Positions 18,169 through 52,209 of a stretch of DNA of 64,000 nucleotides are shown one piece after another. The notes beneath the pieces were generated by a model. That model had not been told where the DNA came from. It did not search any database and worked only from the letters and a program-made list of their open reading frames with translations. Source of the DNA: Mobula hypostoma. Taxonomy: Eukaryota. The position numbers and the translations under genes were made by a program. The DNA is taken from NCBI RefSeq assembly GCF_963921235.1, contig NC_086108.1, forward strand, positions 55,864,001 through 55,928,000, given 5' to 3'. How positions within the stretch are numbered: the first letter of the stretch is position 1; every line of letters begins with the position of its first letter.

Positions 18169-19700
18169 CAGCTGTCCCCCGCTTTTCAAACGTTCACTTT
18201 ACGAAACCTCACTGTTACAAAAGAACTACATTAGTACCCTGTTTTCGCTTTCAGACGGTGTCTTCACTGTTACGAAGAAAGGCAGCGCGCGATAAAGAAT
18301 CAGCGCGCGAAAAAATCAGCGCGCGATATAAGGCAGCGCGCGCCCCGAGCGGCCGCTCGCCCCCGGATTCGGAACGGCATTGCTTAAACACGTGCCTGTG
18401 AGCAGCCGTTAGCAAGATGGGTTCTAAGGTATCGGAGAAGCCTAAAAGAGCTCGTAAGGGTGTTACACTTAGTGTAAAACTAGACATAATTAAGGGTTTC
18501 GATCGTGGTGAACGAAGCAAGGACAAAGTGAGTTTGGCTTGTGGAAACTGACAAAGATGATGTTGAAGAGGTTTTGGCATCCCATGACCAAGAACTGATA
18601 GATGAAGAGCTGATGCAATTGGAAGAGGAAAGGATAACAATCGAAACCGAATGCAGAAGGTGAAACAACTGCGTGAGATTTTCGCTGCAATGATAAAGCA
18701 CAACTTTAATTTTGAAAGGGTACTTAGGTTTAGGGGATACTTGCAGGATGGTTTGAGTCCTTACAAACAAACTGAAAAATGCGCGAGGCTCAGCAGTCAA
18801 GCAAGCCTTCCACATCAGCCACAACAGACAACGAACCTCGACCTTCGACATCGAGGCGGGCAGTCATAGGAGAAGATGAGCTGCCTGCCCTGATCGACGA
18901 TGAGATGACACCCCCGTGTCCCACCACCCCAACACCCGGGCCCCGGACAGATACTGTACCGAATCGCGGAGAATGCAACAGTAGCCGGGAGACACAGCAC
19001 ATCTTTAAGAAAAAAGCCGAAATAAACAAGCTAATTAATTAGGTGCCACCGACACGTAATCGTCGCCCCAGATCAGTGCCGATTTCCGATTGCATCGCCT
19101 CTGATCTGGGCCGACAATTACGTGTCGGTGGCACCTAATTAATTAGCATGTTTATTTCGGCTTTTTTCTTAAAGATGTGCTGTGTGGCTCCCGGCTACTG
19201 CTGTGTTCTTCGCGGCAACGTATCGGGTCGGTGGCCCGGAGGGTGGGGGCCACTGCACCACCCAAACTGCGACGACTCAGTCTAGCACACCATCATCAGT
19301 GCGCTCCGCGCTGTCTTCCCGATTCGGTAAGTGATACTACATTGTATATACATTATGTCTACTTTATATAGGCTGTGCATTTTTACGTGTTATTTGGTAG
19401 ATTCGGCAGCTTCGTAGTTTAAAGATTATTGGAGAGAGTGTTCTTGCCAACAGCGCTTGCGTGAGACACGTGAGATTTTCGCTACGGAGATCTCATATCA
19501 TTCCTGCTTGTACTATATGTTACTGTTATTTTAGGTTTTATGTGTTATTTGTCATGATTTGGTAGGTTATTTTTGGGTCTGCGAACGCTCACAAAATTTT
19601 CCCATATAAATAAATGGTAATAGCTTCTTCACTTTACAACATTTCGGCTTACGAACCGTTTCATAGGAATGCTCTACCTTCGGATGGCGGGGGAAACCTG
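18169..19700 (+). mobile_element. Tigger/pogo-family DNA transposon, internally deleted (non-autonomous)
   Basis: TA TSD (18167-68, 19701-02); TIRs CAGCTGTCCCCCGC / revcomp CAGGTTTCCCCCGC; MGSKVSEKPKRARKGVTLSVKLDIIKGFDRGE (CENP-B-like HTH start, 18418) joined to acidic C-terminal DDVEEVLASHDQELIDEELMQLEEE. Confidence 0.9.
18965..19214. repeat. Long inverted repeat (about 112-bp arms, 24-bp spacer) inside Tigger
   Basis: 18965-19076 is the near-perfect reverse complement of 19101-19214. Confidence 0.95.
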
Positions 19701-42681: not shown

Positions 42682-45470
42682 CATGAGACCATAAGACAAA
42701 GGAGCAGGAGTAGGCCATTCGGCCCATCGAGTCTGCTCCGCCATTTTATCATGAGCTGATCCATTTTATCCTATTTAGTCCCACTGCCCCGCCTTCTCAC
42801 CATAACCTTTGATGCCCTGGCTACTCAGATACCTATCAATCTCTGCCTTAAGACACCCAATGACTTGGCCTCCACTGCTGCCCGTGGCAACAAATTCCAT
42901 AGATTCACCACCCTCTGACTAAAAAAATTTTTTCGCATTTCTGTTCTGAAAGGGCGCCCTTCAATCCTGAAGTCATGCCCTCTCGTACTAGACTCCCCCA
43001 TCATGGGAAACAACTTTGCCACATCCACTCTGTCCATGCCTTTTAACATTCGAAATGTTCCTATGAGGTCTCCCCTCATTCTTCTAAACTCCAAGGAATA
43101 CAGTCCAAGAGCGGACAAACGTTCCTCATATGTTAACCCTCTCATTCCCGGAATCATTCTAGTGAATCTTCTCTGTACCCTCTCCAACGTCAGCACATCC
43201 TTCCTTAAATAAGGAGACCAAAACTGCCCACAGTACTCCAAGTGAGGTCTCACCAGTGCCTTATAGAGCCTCAACATCACATCCCTGCTCCTATACTCTA
43301 TTCCTCTAGAAATGAATGCCAACATTGCATTCGCCTTCTTCACTACCGACTCAACCTGGAGGTTAACTTTAAGGGAATCCTGTACGAGGACTCCCAAGTC
43401 CCGTTGCATCTCAGAACTTTGAATTCTTTCCCCATTTAAATAATAGTCTGCCCGTTTATTTTTTCTGCCAAAGTGCATAACCATACACTTTCCAACATTG
43501 TACTTCATTTGCCACTTCTCTGTCCATTCTTCCAATCTATCCAAGTCTCTCTGCAGACTCTCCGTTTCCTCAGCACTACCGGCCCCTCCACCTATCTTCG
43601 TATCGTCAGCAAACTTAGCCACAAAGCCTTCTATTCCATAATCCAAATCGTTGATGTACAATGTAAAAAGAAGCGGCCCCAACACTGATCCCTGTGGAAC
43701 ACCGCTGGTATCGGCAGCCAACCAGAATATGATCCCTTTATTCTCACTCTTTGTTTCCTGCCAATCAGCCAACGCTCTATCCACATATGTAACTTTCCTG
43801 TAATTCCATGGGCTCTTATCTTGTTAAGCAGCCTCATATGTGGCACCTTGTCAAAGGCCTTCTGAAAATCCAGATATACAACATCCACTGCATCTCCCTT
43901 GTCTAGCCTACTGGTAATTTCCTCAAAAAATTGTAATAGGTTTGTCAGGCAGGATTTTCCTTGAAGGAATCCATGCTGAGTTCTGCCTATCTTGTCATAT
44001 GCCTCCAGGTACTCTGTAACCTCAGCCTTGACAATCGACTCCAACAACCGACGTCAAGCTAACAGGTCTATAATTTCCTTTTTGCTTCTTTGCCCCCTTC
44101 TTAAATAGCGGAGTGACATTTGCAATCTTCCAGTCCTCCGGAACCATGCCAGAATCTATCGACTTTTGAAAGATGATCGCTAATGCCTCCGCAATCTCCA
44201 CAGCTACTTCCTTCAGAACACGAGGGTGCATTCCATCTGGTCCAGGAGATTTATCGACCTTTAGCCTATTCAGCTTCCTGAGTACTTTCTCTGTCGTAAT
44301 TGTGACTGCGCACACTTCTCTTCCCTGTCACCCTTGAGTGTCCGGTATCCTGCTGATGTCTTCCTCAGTGAAGACTGATGCAAAATACTTTTTTGCTTCC
44401 TTGTATGCCCTCTCCTTAGCTTTAACTTTGGCTTTGACTTCTCTTGTCAACCACGGTTGCATCCTTTTTCCACTCGAAAATTTCTCCTTTTTTGGAATAT
44501 ACCTGTCTTGCACATTCCTCATTTCTCGCATAAACTCCAGCCACTGCCGCTCTGCTATCTTTCCCGCCAGTGTCTCTTTCCAGTCAACTTTGGCCAGTTC
44601 CTCTCTCATGCCACTGTAGTTTCCTTTACTCCACTGAAACACTGACACATCAGATTTTGGCTTCTCTTTTTCTAATTTCACAGTGAACTCAATCATGTTA
44701 TGATCACTGCCTCCTAAGGGTTCCTTCACCTCAATCTCTCCAATCACCTCCGGTTCATTACACAATACCCAATCCAGTACAGCCGATCCCCTAGTGGGCT
44801 CAACAACAAGCTGTTCTAAAAAGCCATCTCGCAGACATTCTACAAATTCTCTCTCTTGAGATCCAGTGCCGACCTGATTTTTCCAATCTACTCGCATGTT
44901 AAAATCCCCCACAATTATCATAACACTGCCCTTCTGATAAGCCTTTTCTATTTCCAGTTGTAATTTGTAGTCCACATCCCTGCAGCTGTTTGGAGGCCTA
45001 TAAATAACTGCCATCAGGGTCCTTTTACCCCTCCTATTCCTTAGCTCAACCCATAAAGATTCTGCACCTTCCGATCCTATATCACCTCTTTCTAATGATT
45101 TAATATCATTTCTTACCAATAAAGCCACGCCTCCCCCTCTGTCTACCTTCCTATCCTTCCGATACACCGTGTATCCTTGGACGTTCAGCTCCCAGAGACA
45201 TGCATCCTTTAGCCAGGTCTCAGTGATGGCCACAATATCATACCTGCCAATCTGTAGCTGTACAACTAGATCATCCACCTTATTTCTTATGCTGTGTGCA
45301 TTTAAGTACAACACCTTAAGACCAGTATTTGATACTTTTTGCTTTGATTTCACTGCAACTTTATTGCACTGCAACTCATCCCAATGGCTACACATTTGCC
45401 CCATCACCTGCCTGTCTTTCCTGACATCTTTACTGCTCACTATCTTAGATTTATTTCTATCTTAGATTTA
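42682..45470 (-). mobile_element. Relatively young CR1 LINE (ORF2 with internal deletion) inserted in the ERV integrase zinc finger
   Basis: Long ORFs 44328-45440 (EN) and 42825-43784 (RT: GVPQGSVLGP, KFADDTK); AATATCAC duplicated at 42674-81 and 45479-86. Confidence 0.93.
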
Positions 45471-45924
45471 TCACACACAATATCACACACAGTAACAACT
45501 TCTTTAGTCATTACTACAGGCAGTTGTACACCTCGTTGTCTAGTCCATTCAATTGTACCAGGCATTCCCAGATGACCAGTCATATTTTGTGCCCATTGAC
45601 CCAGTGCATGGAATTCAGGGGTGTTGGCCTGGCATACCCAGATTAACTGGTCCACTTTATTTTTAAGGGTGAAAGTCTGTTCCCGCGTTCAGATGTGGCC
45701 AAGAGGAAGAGAGGGACACTGATGCTGGTCAATAGTTCATAGATTTTAATGTGAACAGGATTTTAAGGGAAAGGAAAACAATAAACGCTAGGGCAGGTGG
45801 GGCCATTAACCATAACTCTCAAATGGAAAACTAAACGCCAGCACTATGGCTGAAAGAAAAATCTAAACATAAAATCCTTCCTAACGTGCTGCACCAGACA
45901 GTCAGTCATTCTGGTCTGGCGCGT

Positions 45925-46132: not shown

Positions 46133-46330
46133 TCAAGATAAAATGGATACTGCTCATCTCTAGTGTAAGTCAAACTGATTGTCCACTTCCTCGGATAAGG
46201 CTGAATGCAAGCAGGCAGTGTAACATTGCTGTGCTTTGCTCAAATCTCAACAAGTACTACAATGCAAAGAAGGGAGTTAAACACCACCATAATGAAACAG
46301 TAATTAGCTGAAATGTTTGTATTCACGAGC

Positions 46331-49300
46331 TGTGGTAAACCATATATATATGTTGTAACTGGGTTACCTGTCTGGACACACCCCTCTGCTGACTGCTCCT
46401 GTGGCGATTGTGCCATTGCTTCTCCTCTCAGTCCAGGGCAGATACTCAGCATGGTCGAGGTCACACTTTACTACTAATAAAAGCCTTTCAGTATTTACTC
46501 TACTTCCAGTCTTTTGGAGTAATTGATAGTGCATCAATTTTATTAGCAGTAATTCTAAAGCATGGAACACGTGCTGAGACCCGACAAGTTAGACCTTGAC
46601 CCGCAAACACCGTCTATGCACGACATCACTTAGCAACGTGGCAGCAGCAGCCCGGAGAGTCGAGCACTGAATTTGTTTGGGCACTACAGACACATGTGCA
46701 GACCTGCAATTGCTAGGGGCTGACATCTGAACGGCATGCGGAGCTCCTAGTAAGAGACGCCGTCGTCACGGGGACCAAGTCAGTGTATGTGCGTCAGCTG
46801 GGACCCGCCAATCTTATCTTATGTTTGGTGATTGAGCTGGCTGACAAGCTGGAGGCCGCTCTGTACATCTCTGACGCTCTCCAGGCACGCGATCTCCCAA
46901 CGGCCTCGTGGACACTGCAGACCCCACAACCCGCCAGCAAATCGACCACGGCTGCTGCCAGTCGCACGTCCGTGAAGTGCTACTTCTGCGGACTCGAGAA
47001 GCACCCCCAGAAACGCTCTCCGGCCCGAGAAGCTACCTGCTCCAGCTGCGGAAAGAAGGGCCACTTCGCCAAGGCCTGTAAGTCCAAACCGCGAGCGGGA
47101 TCGAGCAGCGCCGCATGCGAGGCGTGGGGGTCGTCATCTTGCCTGCACGCCGCCACCATGTGCGAGACATGGGGGCGGCCATCTTGGTCGACGCCACCTC
47201 ACACCGCCTACGACCCACGGGTGCTCACGAGGCACCCCACCATGCCGGACCAAGACAACGACTCAACTCTGGCCTCCGTGACCCTCGACCAAAGTGCTTC
47301 CCACCAGCTCGCAAGGTCATTGATGGACATCCTGGTGGAGGGGTGCAGGACAAGCTGCCTGTTTGACACAGGCAGCACGGAGAGTTTTATCCACGCGGAC
47401 ACGGTGCAGCATTGCGGACTCATGATATGGCCGGTAAGTCAAAGGGTCACCATGGCTTCCGGGTCGCATACAACAGACATCCGGGGGGTTTGTGTAGCGA
47501 CGCTAGTGGTGCAGGGCACAGAATATCGAGACTTTACGTTACTGGTCATGCCTCAACAGTGTGCCCCTGTGCTATTGGGGCTCGACTTCCAGAGCCACCT
47601 GAAAAGCGTGACAATGAAGTATGATGGGCCCCTCCCACCAATCACTGTCATAAATTCCCAGTTTTGTAGGGATACGTCACATACCCCGCTACTGACCACA
47701 CACACACTCCAACCCGCACATCCCATCCAACACCATGTCAACTGCTGCAGCACCGACGCCACTTGCGGCCTCTCCACCCTCAAGATCCCTCCTCCACCGC
47801 TGTTTGCCAACCTGACCCCCGACTGTAAACCTGTGGCAACTAAAAGCAGGAGGTACAGCGCGGGGGACAGAGCCTTCATTAAGTCGGAGGTGCAGCGGCT
47901 GCTCAGGGAGGGGGTCATTGAGGCAAGCACAAGTCCTTGGAGGGCGCAGGTGATCGTTGTTCAGAATGGGCAGAAAAATAGGATGGTCGTGGACTATAGC
48001 CAGACCATCAATAGTTTCACGCTGCTCGACGCGTACCCTCTACCCCGCATCGCAGATATGGTCAATCAGATAGCACAGTACAAGGTGTACTCGACCATAG
48101 ACCTAAAATCTGCTTACCATCAGCTCCCCATCCACCGGGAGGATCGCCCTTACACCGCCTTCGAGGCGGACGGCAGGCTTTATCACTTCCTGTGGGCCCC
48201 CTTTGGTGTCACAAATGGTGTATCTGTCTTCCAGAGGGAACTGGACCGGATGATGGACCAGTGCCAACTGAAGGCCACACTCCCCTATCTGGATAACATC
48301 ACCATCTGTGGTCACGACCGGCAGGATCACGACAACACCTCCAAAAATTTCTCCAAGCGGCCAAAGCTTTCAACCTCACCTATAACAAGGACAAGTGTGT
48401 ATTTGGGACCACCCAACTTGCTATCCTTGGGTGTGTCGTGGAGAACGGAGTCATTGGCCCTGTCCCCGACCGTATGCGCCCCCTGTTGGAACTCCCTCTT
48501 CCCAACACCCTCAGAGCCCTCAAAAGGTGCCTGGGCTTCTTTTCATATTACGCCCAATGGGTCTCTAACTATACAAACAAGGCCCACCCCCTGCTCAAGT
48601 CCACCACATTCCCACTCTCAGCCGAGGCCCGCGCGGCCTTCAGCCGCATAAAAGGAGACATTGCCAAAGCAGCAATGCATGCGGTGGACGAGGCCATTCC
48701 CTTCCAAGTAGAGTGACGCCTCCGACCGGCTATATGCCCTACATGTAGATCTTTGCCACCCGGGGATCCCTCGGCTTTACCACTTCGTGAAAGCCCGGAA
48801 CCTGCCTTACTCCCTTGAGGAGATCAGGACGATGACCAGGGATTGCCAAGTCTGCGCAGAGTGCAAACCGCACTTCTACCGACCCGAAAAGGCACAACTC
48901 ATCAAGGCCGCCCGCCCTTTTGAGCAACTGAGTGTTGACTATAAGGGCCCCCTTCCCTTCACCGACCGCAATGTGTACTTTCTTAATGTTATCGACAAGT
49001 ACTCGCGGTTCCCCTTCGGCATCCCCTACCCCGATACCACTACCATGTCAGTTATAAAAGCCCTGCGCAAGCTCTTCACTCTGTTCGGATACCCATGCTA
49101 TACCCACAGTTGCAGAGGGTCCTCGTTTATGAGTGACGAGCTGCGCCAATATCTACTGGCTAGGGAAATTGCAACTAGTAGGACCATGAGCTATAATCCC
49201 CGGGGGAATGGACAGATGGAGAAGGAGAATGGCATGGTGTGGAAAGCCACACTCTTAGCCCTCAGGTCAAAGGGACTGCCAGTCTCTCGCTAGCAGGAAG

Positions 49301-50171
49301 TCCTTCCCGAGGCACTCCACTCCATCCGCTCCCTGTTATGCACAGCCACCAATGCCAGCCCTCATGAGCGACTCTTTTCTTTTCCCAGAAAGTCGACCAC
49401 TGGGACCACCCTACCAACTTGGCTGACGTCTCTGGGGCCAGTGCTGCTCCGGAAACATGTGAGGAGCAATAAATACTCCCCGATAGTCGAGAGGGTTCAC
49501 TTACTTCATGTGAACTCCCAGTATGCCTATGTGGTTTTATCTGATGGGCAGGAGGACACGGTCTCCATCCGCGACCTGGCGCCCGCAGGAGCACCGGGCC
49601 CCTACCCTGAACACTCTGTGGTGACTATTGACCCCGTACCCACCGATGTATGTACCCACGAGACACCGCACACTCCAAACCCTACACAGACACAACACGA
49701 CACTCCCATACCGGGCGCGATGCACACACACGAGGGATTAACAACGCCTAACGTGCTGGCACCTGAAGTCAGGCCGGAGCCAGCACAACCGCCATCGCCG
49801 GTGCAATTACCACCGGTGTTACGTAGATCACAGCGACGGACTCGACCGCCTGATAGACTTGACCTGTAAATATACCTGTTTTAAATATTGTCAGTCACTT
49901 CACCCCGCAGGACTCTTTTTAAAAAAAAAGGAGGGGTGAATGTGGTAAACTATATATATGTTGTAAATGGGTTACCTGTCTGGACACGCCCCTCTGCTGA
50001 CTGCTCCTGTGGCTCCTCCCACAGACCCCTGAATAAAGGCGATTGTGCCATTGCTCCTCCTCTCAGTCCAGGGCGGATACTCAGCATGGTCGAGGTCACA
50101 TTTTACTGCTAATAAAAGCCTTTCAGTATTTACTCTATTTCCAGTCTTTTGGAGTAATTGATAGTGCATCA
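46331..50171 (+). mobile_element. Ty3/Gypsy LTR retrotransposon, relatively young, with internal deletions
   Basis: LTRs 46331-46536 and 49941-50171 (TG...CA), perfect TSD CGAGC, PPT AAAAAAAAAGGAGGGGTGAA. Confidence 0.96.
46783..49869 (+). pseudogene. Gypsy gag-pol (zinc knuckle, protease, RT, truncated RNase H, integrase)
   Basis: CSSCGKKGHFAKAC, LFDTGS, RMVVDYSQTIN, DLKSAYHQ, YLDN; frameshift near 48340; RNase H cut off after VESDASD-like motif (~48726); integrase SVDYKGPLP...GNGQMEKEN with stop at 49291-93. Confidence 0.92.
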
Positions 50172-52209
50172 CGAGCACAATTGTGGGAGTGCACAAACCC
50201 TGCAGCCATGTCTGTGGTTGTGACTGAGGCATCTTTCTGGTGAGTGTCTACATGAAACATAGTGATGATCATTCCATGGGCCCCCTATCAAATCTTTTCC
50301 CAGAGTGCTTGTCTCTGTATCTGCCAGCTTTCTTGTTGCCATCCTATCACACGCTAGCAAGTCCATTCGCAACTGCGCATGAGACTGTGCATGTGTGCAC
50401 CTGACTCGTTTCAAGCTGCAATGGTAAAGTGATTACTACCAGTTCAGCTAGCTGGCTGGAACCGTTCTCTCCCTGTTGCTGAAAAACCGTTTCTGTGACT
50501 GGATTCAAAGCAGCTGCTGTCCACCCCTGGACACTGGCTGTTCTGTGACTAAACCAGGCGTGGTGTTTGTCTGCTACAGACAACTGCTCATATGATACGC
50601 CCCTTGTAACAAGAGAGCGAGGCACAGGTGTGAGGGGTTTAGTAGTTTCAGTACATTTTTAGCCATGGGCATGTGAGCAATACTTTTGTGTAACTTACTG
50701 ACCCCCTCCCAGACCTTGTTTGTCCGTTCTCCAAGGCACCACTTCCATTTCACAATAGAAGTTTGCTGCACCCTCCCGCACCTAGTTAGTGGAGGTCTCC
50801 ATGAACACCCGCGTCATAATGAGGGGGTCAGATCTCATAGTGACTTCGCTTCCCTCGGTGGCAGCCTCCATTCCCAGGGAGCAGGCTGGTAGCTGTCTTT
50901 CAGAAGGTGTGTGTCAAACAGCAGCATCAGGCTGGGTGCAGGACCAGAACCCTAGAGAGTGCGCACCCCATTCTGTCTCTGCCTTAAATTTCATAGAGTG
51001 CTGTTCTGATGTACGAACACTTGTAGCTCGAAGGGGAATCTGGGTGAACGAGAAGCCCCAGGCAGGACCTGAGCCATGGCTTCCTTTGCAGCCTTGAATG
51101 CCTGTTATTATTCTGCACCCCACTCAAAAGTTTCTTTCTCCCAAGTTACTTCATATAAGGGTCGCAACAGGACAATTAGGTGTGGTAAGTGCCACCTTAT
51201 GTAGCCCAATAGTCTCACAAACCTTTGGATCTCCTGCTTATTGGGGTTGGGCAGGGTAGGCATTTCATTTTTATTATTCTGTACTTTGTTTGGGATTACT
51301 TAATGTCCTGAGACCCACTGGATACCTAGAAACTGGACTGACAGGCTCCGCCCTGTGTTTTCTGTGGATTCACCATCCATTCTTGGCCTCTCATGTGGCT
51401 TACCAGCACATCCAGGGCTTCAGCTGCCCCCTCTTCAGTGGATCCACTTTGCATGCTGTTATTGATATAGTGGGATACCTGTATGCCTGCTGAGAGAGTA
51501 CATGTATTACGGTCTCTCACTATCAGTCTATAACACAAGGTAGGGCTATGCATATACCCCTGAGGCAATCTGATACCTCCCCATGTGAAGGCAAATTGGT
51601 TCTGTGACTCTGGCGACAGGGGAATAGGTAAAAATGTGTTGGCCAAATCTATTACAATGTACCATTTTCTGTCTCCCTGTGAAATTTGGAGGGAGGATCA
51701 CACTTATTCAACTGGCAATAATCAACTGTCACCTTCCAGCTGCCATCCAATTTCTTCACAGGCTAGACAGGATTGTTGTGCTCTAAAGTTGCATACCTGA
51801 TCACACCTTGTTTAAACAACTCTGTTACAGTGTCTGAGATTTCCGAATATCCTCCCAGTATTCGGTACTGTTTCACACAAACCACGGCACTCAGTGGAGG
51901 TATTGTAAAAAGCTCCCACTTCGCTAGCCCCACTAAAATTGTTGCTATTAAACTATCCAATGTGAACTTCCCCAATTTAGTTTGCATTATCTGTCCCTGC
52001 AGCACATTCACTCCAATTGTATTTTCAGATAACAGGGCTATCAGTATTTGGTCTCCCTCCCCAGTAGCCAATCGGACCATTGCTCATTTTCCATGGTTTT
52101 ATTATATTCCCTTCTAACACTCCACTCACACCAGCAGCTGCTGGTGCTGGTCAGGGTTTCTGCTTATAACTGAATGCTCTGCATCCATGTCTAGCCTCCA
52201 GCAAACCCA

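Follow-up and report, generated by a model that had tools for sequence, protein, structure and literature searches.

Self-priming of reverse transcription with the element's own RNA has been proven in fission-yeast Tf1 and is usually taken as a mark of the Tf1/sushi group, with one predicted case amongst plant copia elements. According to the accessible text of the respective reports, the Tf1 self-primer is 11 bases long and is cut by RNase H (PMC7175516), while two extra duplexes flank the primer helix in a pretzel-like arrangement (bioRxiv 10.1101/2022.12.06.519325). Self-priming has also been reported for Tj1 of S. japonicus (PMC4600332), as well as for Tf1/sushi, Tcn1 and the plant copia TAR lineage (PMC6317226), and the accessible part of PMC3601003 states only that some chromoviruses use hairpin priming. 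The accessible text on Skipper of Dictyostelium describes an element without TGG, yet with no such complement in its LTR (PMC5006619).

The window, the 64 kb stretch of Mobula hypostoma DNA that was analysed, contains one LTR element, a decayed Gypsy copy at 46331-50171 on the plus strand (Table 1). The LTR limits were set by the CGAGC duplication and by public contigs, which have loose ends at 46330/46331 and 46536, and the two LTRs differ by 7 substitutions over 204 aligned bases and by two indels. Pfam analysis indicated a zinc knuckle, a protease, a reverse transcriptase (RT) and an integrase in Gypsy order, with a partly deleted RNase H, but no chromodomain, and the copy has no env. The features expected of Ty3/Gypsy elements are therefore all represented: TG...CA LTRs, a target duplication, a polypurine tract and the order gag-PR-RT-RH-IN. 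The copy is dead: parts of Gag and RNase H are deleted, and the frame is interrupted by stops and two frameshifts. Near its start, the gag-pol frame has a deletion and a frameshift at ~46600 and a stop at ~46715, followed further 3' by a frameshift at ~48340, a deletion of ~120 codons in RNase H at ~48716 and a stop at ~49292. A 27-bp segment of the 3' LTR (50011-50037) is missing from the 5' LTR, which must have lost it because relatives carry it; this segment holds a second AATAAA, 80 nt upstream of the arm end, which is not kept in another organism.

Table 1. Coordinates of the Gypsy copy and of its presumed priming elements in the window
Feature	Position	Strand	Remarks
Left target-site duplication, CGAGC	46326..46330	+	5 bp
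5' LTR, TG...CA	46331..46536	+	206 bp; without the 27-bp segment found in the 3' LTR
LTR arm (presumed self-primer)	46468..46482	+	pairs with the primer site at 14/15 positions; ends in AATAAAA, with AATAAA at 46476-46481
Presumed cut	between 46482 and the following GCC	+	predicted position
Spacer between the CA of the LTR and the primer site	46537..46537	+	1 nt; 1 nt in 51/51 anchored loci
Primer-binding site without TGG	46538..46552	+	complementary to the LTR arm
Decayed single gag-pol frame	46562..49869	+	Gag with double zinc knuckle, protease, RT, RNase H, integrase
Polypurine tract	49921..49940	+	final GAA adjoins the TG of the LTR
3' LTR, TG...CA	49941..50171	+	231 bp
Arm copy in the 3' LTR	50103..50117	+	pairs with the primer site at 15/15 positions; no primer site downstream
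Right target-site duplication, CGAGC	50172..50176	+	5 bp

Several other repeats were observed in the window. A decayed retrovirus-like pol on the minus strand (45440-45688 and 50172-52117) is apparently the target into which the Gypsy element inserted; one side shows a weak RT match at ~51340-51680 (Pfam RVT_1, E 5e-8, and E 1e-6 in a second scan), and the other side features a frame resembling an integrase zinc finger by eye, with no Pfam match. An inverted repeat of ~250 bp at 18965-19214, 88% self-alike, is probably the remnant of a small DNA transposon. Many decayed LINE-like endonuclease/RT copies, CR1-type by our own reading, lie at 42700-45460 and elsewhere.

The preliminary description of this locus had reported that no TGG follows the 5' LTR and that the sequence standing in its place is complementary to a segment of both LTRs that includes AATAAA. 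Its coordinates and sequences are correct, with an exact match to the 3' LTR and a single mismatch to the 5' LTR (Table 1), and the first TGG is 26 nt away, inside the ATGG of gag. When up to two mismatches were allowed, each 15-mer was found on the plus strand of the window at these places only, and the window holds no second copy of the Gypsy element. The longest reverse-complement match between the 25 nt past the LTR and a dinucleotide-shuffled 3' LTR was 12 in 5000 shuffles, versus 15 observed. The mismatch in the 5' LTR, an A at 46473, is private to the window copy, as contigs of four public runs read mostly G at this position (depth of G 211/222, 192/192, 759/815 and 1772/1772).

Related loci, 87 in all, were fetched: the 80 best among 520 confirmed metagenome stretches, and 7 of 7 from genome bins, which were taken as host DNA. 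Together with the window copy, 58 of these had a usable gag start, including one with too little upstream DNA, such that 57 were scored and 31 remained unscored. A helix was called at a score of at least 10 between the pre-gag leader and the LTR, helices being picked at first on Watson-Crick pairs. Complementarity is kept in related copies: 51 of the 57 scorable loci, window copy included, carry the helix, and 47 of these 51 beat all 40 of their own shuffles. In all 51 the primer site is anchored 1 nt after the CA (an inward shift of at most 4 nt was allowed), and none has a TGG primer site. Six scored loci gave no helix. One is a decayed copy with an imperfect helix (L053), one is without an upstream LTR (L063) and one looks degenerate (L055); the remaining three (L034, L040 and L042) fall inside the clade with no helix found upstream of gag, and may be truncated or decayed, or may have changed their priming.

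The protein matches closest to the window copy, amongst 120 listed of 1622, come from rays and sharks (Hypanus at 90%, Mobula, Scyliorhinus and Narcine), while more distant named matches within the same 120, at 59-66%, come from cnidarians, insects and one nematode. Intact relatives encode one ORF of ~1200 aa between LTRs of ~150-230 bp and are ~4 kb overall, and a Gag double zinc knuckle is present in 48 of 55 full-length stored proteins. Judged from the 57 scorable loci, the self-pairing layout is lineage-wide.

As controls, 40 regions were drawn from bins in which clade loci also occur, and yielded 18 LTR elements of other groups with clear LTR pairs; these come from three assemblies that hold clade loci, and many of them are mutually related. 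None of the 18 shows such a helix, the best score at the LTR end being 7. A TGG lies within 7 nt of the LTR end in 16 of them, and the other two have the same type of site, either mutated or beyond a mis-set boundary. These data bear on the possibility that the helix is a chance inverted repeat in AT-rich DNA. The arms are indeed AT-rich and the fold of the whole 270-nt leader reaches a z-score of only -2.1, but none of the 5000 shuffles gave a match of 13 or more, nearly all of the conserved helices exceed every one of their shuffles and the controls have none. Chance is extremely improbable as an explanation, and the register conserved across these loci refutes it.

The preliminary description had looked to an alignment of family members for compensatory changes, and the LTR arm and the primer site do covary. 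Removal of near-duplicates left 32 non-redundant families, which carry 31 distinct 13-nt arms. Over positions -1 to -13, a total of 416 cells, 403 are Watson-Crick pairs, 4 are G-U pairs and 9 are unpaired; the families are related, so these cells are not independent events, and the scarcity of G-U pairs partly reflects the initial choice of helices on Watson-Crick pairs. An arm pairs with its own site at 12.6 of 13 positions on average, versus 8.3 of 13 when arm and site are taken from different families. Watson-Crick pairing is found in 28-32 of the 32 families at each position from -1 to -13 and declines to 23, 19 and 18 families at -14, -15 and -16, while pairing at -17 to -24 (7-10 of 31 families) corresponds to background. 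An independent MAFFT alignment of 16 of the family sequences showed two-sided changes at 10 of 13 pairs; its covariation score was 0.647, versus 0.156 for shuffled alignments (0/500) and at most 0.122 for slid ones, although relatedness inflates such scores.

The same behaviour is seen between close copies. Over 818 sites, L022 shows 11-12 differences from two sister copies, yet it carries the same change in both LTR arms together with the matching change in the site. In L018 a change is present in both LTRs while the site is unchanged, a pattern that would be the expected intermediate if the site is rewritten from the LTR. Amongst the variants listed, two DNA-sized runs from related organisms read 46546 G>A and 46549 G>A in the site almost throughout; the arm partner of the first, 46474 C>T, is listed in these runs, and the partner of the second, at 46471, is implied by loose ends. 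Two other runs carry 46545 A>C, whose partner is implied by a single contig.

Since the site follows its own LTR through 31 forms, a fixed host tRNA cannot be its partner. A less usual host RNA, such as a tRNA half, an internal tRNA fragment or a small RNA, might still bind the site, leaving the LTR match as a competing structure; half-tRNA primers exist in Ty1/copia lineages according to the accessible text of PMC6317226, and several arm positions are conserved across families. Such a primer would have to accommodate the 31 matching site forms of the 32 families and to track the LTR even between copies ~1.4% apart, and no Rfam match was found in 46300-46620 at E<=1, making this explanation very unlikely. 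ARAGORN found no tRNA genes in the 64 kb window. The proposal in the preliminary description that this element primes without a tRNA is strongly supported by sequence comparison, through the CA+1 register, the covariation in 32 families and the 18 helix-free controls.

The 3' end of the primer defines the LTR end in retroelements, and the primer must therefore bind where this site lies. We consider it likely that elements of this lineage use part of their own RNA to prime reverse transcription, in a manner similar to Tf1. Transcription would start ~11-16 nt upstream of the arm end, and the arm would then fold onto the primer site, 1 nt past the CA of the LTR. RNase H would cut where the final AAA meets a short RCC hairpin (in Tf1, the cut follows base 11), and the freed 3' end would prime minus-strand DNA. 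Plus-strand synthesis would finally copy the primer into a new primer site, so that site and LTR would change together. If the primer is copied back in each cycle in this way, exact complementarity, few G-U pairs and the patterns of L022 and L018 would all follow.

Features at the arm end are compatible with such a cut. The AAA at the end of the arm is nearly invariant and is followed by RCC (G/A in 30, C in 29 and C in 28 of 32 families). Pairing of this RCC(T/A) start with a loop segment gives a short hairpin, with a mean of 4.3 pairs versus 2.9 in shuffled sequences (0/300). The hairpin (4-7 nt after the arm; 46483-46487 in the window) is weak in the window copy, with 2 pairs under the same rule. 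G-U pairs make up 18 of 139 pairs in the RCC hairpin versus 4 of 416 cells in the helix, a difference that partly reflects how each was scored.

The 5' end of the predicted primer is less sharply marked. An initiator-like motif, Y-N-[A/T]-G-Y, places its A/T at -11 in 20 of 31 families and at any other offset from -6 to -29 in at most five, and this position would match the length of the Tf1 primer; the arm of the window copy itself does not match the motif. At each offset from 25 to 70 nt upstream of the arm end, no more than one family has a TATA box. The arm itself was considered as a TATA box and rejected, as in L012 and L087 only 23 nt remain to the LTR end, which would leave no R or U5. 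Contig stops at ~46425-46427, near an initiator-like TCAGTC in two presumed-RNA runs, were rejected as a start because contigs cannot show starts and the family branches there. Contigs of L001 and L028 that begin at or just before the arm were also rejected as evidence of a start, since their distances of 77 and 55 nt from the LTR end are usual assembler word lengths. No poly(A) tails were seen in the clade loci.

Because pairing spans 13-16 nt and so extends past -11, a single start at -11 does not fit, and under the folding-back model the starts must be scattered or lie further upstream. Priming from the arm copy in the 3' LTR, or from the RNA of a dimer partner, would offer another solution: the 3' region of the RNA, once trimmed or cut after AAA, would pair with the primer site over the length of the genome or in trans. 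Both LTRs carry the arm, pairing past -11 would be explained without scattered starts and the Tf1 pretzel is not seen. On the other hand, use of the 3' copy would consume the strand-transfer template in the same RNA, and the initiator-like motif at -11 points to transcription beginning at the arm. We know of no precedent for self-priming from a 3' copy or in trans, and regard it as improbable here.

The preliminary description had also suggested that the duplex hides AATAAA at the 5' LTR only and so prevents premature polyadenylation. RNA structure is known to occlude the 5' poly(A) signal in the HIV-1 polyA hairpin. As in HIV-1, a hexamer would be taken up by a helix at the 5' end; unlike in HIV-1, the second strand of the helix in this clade comes from the primer site, beyond the LTR, and the hexamer is not present in all families. 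Since this second strand lies outside the LTR, the helix can form only at the 5' end. Predicted folds of the window copy place the hexamer in a duplex at the 5' LTR and leave it mostly unpaired at the 3' LTR. For 5' leaders starting 16 or 60 nt before the arm end, the helix is predicted to form with a mean pairing probability of 0.96-0.97. Hiding of the signal is thus structurally possible according to these models, and masking could be a side benefit of the priming helix where the arm ends in AATAAA or ATTAAA.

However, the helix does not owe its conservation to masking. Of the 32 families, 8 have an arm ending in AATAAA and 10 one ending in ATTAAA, and 14 have neither, such that masking is not needed to explain the helix. 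Only three of these 14 hexamer-free arms are accompanied by a canonical hexamer in the loop, leaving 11 of 32 families with none in arm or loop. These counts also weigh on the converse explanation, in which the helix serves mainly to hide the poly(A) signal of the 5' LTR and priming uses something else. That explanation can draw on the 18 of 32 arms that do end in a hexamer, on the predicted stability of the helix in 5' leaders and on the largely open hexamer in the 3' context of the window. It fails to account for the families without a canonical hexamer, it requires neither the fixed CA+1 register nor the near-absence of G-U pairs, and it leaves aside that a primer must bind beside the LTR end, exactly where the helix sits without TGG; we judge it quite improbable. 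A real dual role in both priming and poly(A) masking is possible, albeit doubtful, while self-priming as such remains the favoured function of the helix.

In the literature searched, there was no report of self-priming for a non-chromovirus animal Gypsy lineage; an earlier note of this feature in Repbase Reports, GyDB, subscription papers or preprint supplements, which were outside the scope of that search, is quite possible. The most far-reaching reading would be that self-priming arose independently in a large, widespread group of animal Gypsy elements that are not chromoviruses, with a primer built from their own poly(A) signal, where a single duplex both primes and blocks polyadenylation at the 5' LTR, the cut is set by the RCC hairpin with no pretzel, and the site is rewritten in each cycle. 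We put this composite forward tentatively and think it rather unlikely to hold in every part. If true, a second, apparently independent animal lineage would mean that escape from tRNA priming arises repeatedly, which bears on whether hairpin priming is ancestral or derived, a question discussed in the accessible part of PMC3601003. Such elements would also be without the tRNA site that host tRNA fragments target, as described in the accessible text of PMC7472051. The short leader could provide a simple system for studying how RNase H chooses its cut, and whether priming and control of 5' polyadenylation share one helix. LTR finders with tRNA-based primer-site filters would probably miss the lineage.

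The position of the clade was assessed with a quick, unrooted RT-RNase H tree of 69 rows, in which the controls were named by our own reading and no chromovirus is included. The 32 helix families fall into one clade with 11 stored proteins and with five clade loci that have no scored helix; this clade is set apart from 21 controls with an SH-aLRT of 100 and a stem of 1.66. In agreement with the preliminary description, which had noted no chromodomain in this element, neither a chromodomain nor a Tf2-type SH3 domain was found in any of 42 aligned members (Pfam, E<=0.01), and no chromodomain appears amongst the precomputed domains of the 120 listed proteins (of 1622 matches). Compared with Ty3 over RT-RNase H, an intact clade member scores 189 bits and four tRNA-primed animal controls 213-317 bits; for RT fragments, the window copy scores 77 bits and a Mag-type fragment 75 bits. 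The low Ty3 score argues against a chromovirus placement, although a long branch could hide derivation, and an origin of self-priming independent of the chromoviruses seems likely.

Candidates for a chromovirus outgroup were rejected: the SH3 matches that were checked sit in elements with the integrase before RT, and a chromodomain match belongs, by our own reading, to a Polinton-like integrase. Several of the bacterial genome bins examined (G001-G005, L083-L171) contain much animal-type DNA. LTR-type RNase H matches number 109 in G001 and 150 in G003, many of them in elements with the integrase before RT. At L168 (1495-2607) and L169, an integrase ending in a chromodomain lies beside a small unrelated ORF, which by our own reading has the look of a Polinton/Maverick, and L119 features a SCAN domain in Gag. 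Scans of viral contigs found nothing, and an atlas search with Gag named no clade.

Amongst tRNA-primed animal elements, Mag/SURL-type Gypsy elements share with the clade a single ORF of ~1200 aa, short LTRs and a length of ~4 kb, and a control with a TGG site, taken as Mag-type, is 24% identical to the clade over 856 aa from Gag to RNase H. A double CCHC array in Gag is a feature of the Mag lineage. The difference lies in priming and divergence, as the Mag-type control has a TGG and no helix, whereas the helix clade has TGG in 0 of 51 loci and a long stem in the RT tree. From its size and single ORF, we take Cigr-1 of Ciona intestinalis to be a candidate named member. A Cigr-1 clade has been reported in molluscs and annelids (accessible text of PMC6238403 and PMC8556966), and Cigr-1 appears under 'Mag' in the supplement of PMC6238403; a search of the accessible supplement text found the labels, while three peptide motifs were absent from it.

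The plant TAR lineage (Houba, Osr-1) is comparable in that self-priming has been predicted from complementarity between LTR and site outside the chromoviruses (PMC6317226), which, on the accessible text, indicates that self-priming arose more than once. It differs in belonging to the Ty1/copia superfamily, in its plant hosts and in having the integrase before RT. The closest resemblance in layout is to Tf1/Tf2, Tj1 and the Tf1/sushi group, including plant Tcn1, which, as far as the accessible descriptions go, share the absence of a tRNA site, the Ty3/gypsy domain order and an LTR segment of ~11 or more bases complementary to a site just past the CA. Differences from Tf1/sushi elements include the pairing length of 13-16 nt, an arm that ends in a poly(A)-like hexamer followed by the RCC hairpin, and a Gag with a double zinc knuckle. 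The flanking duplexes of the Tf1 pretzel are not enriched in the clade, as 118/300 and 31/300 shuffles scored as high in a crude longest-helix test. Two marks of the Tf1/sushi group, the chromodomain and the pretzel, are thus missing from this clade, but it possesses another, a primer site beside the CA that is complementary to its own LTR.
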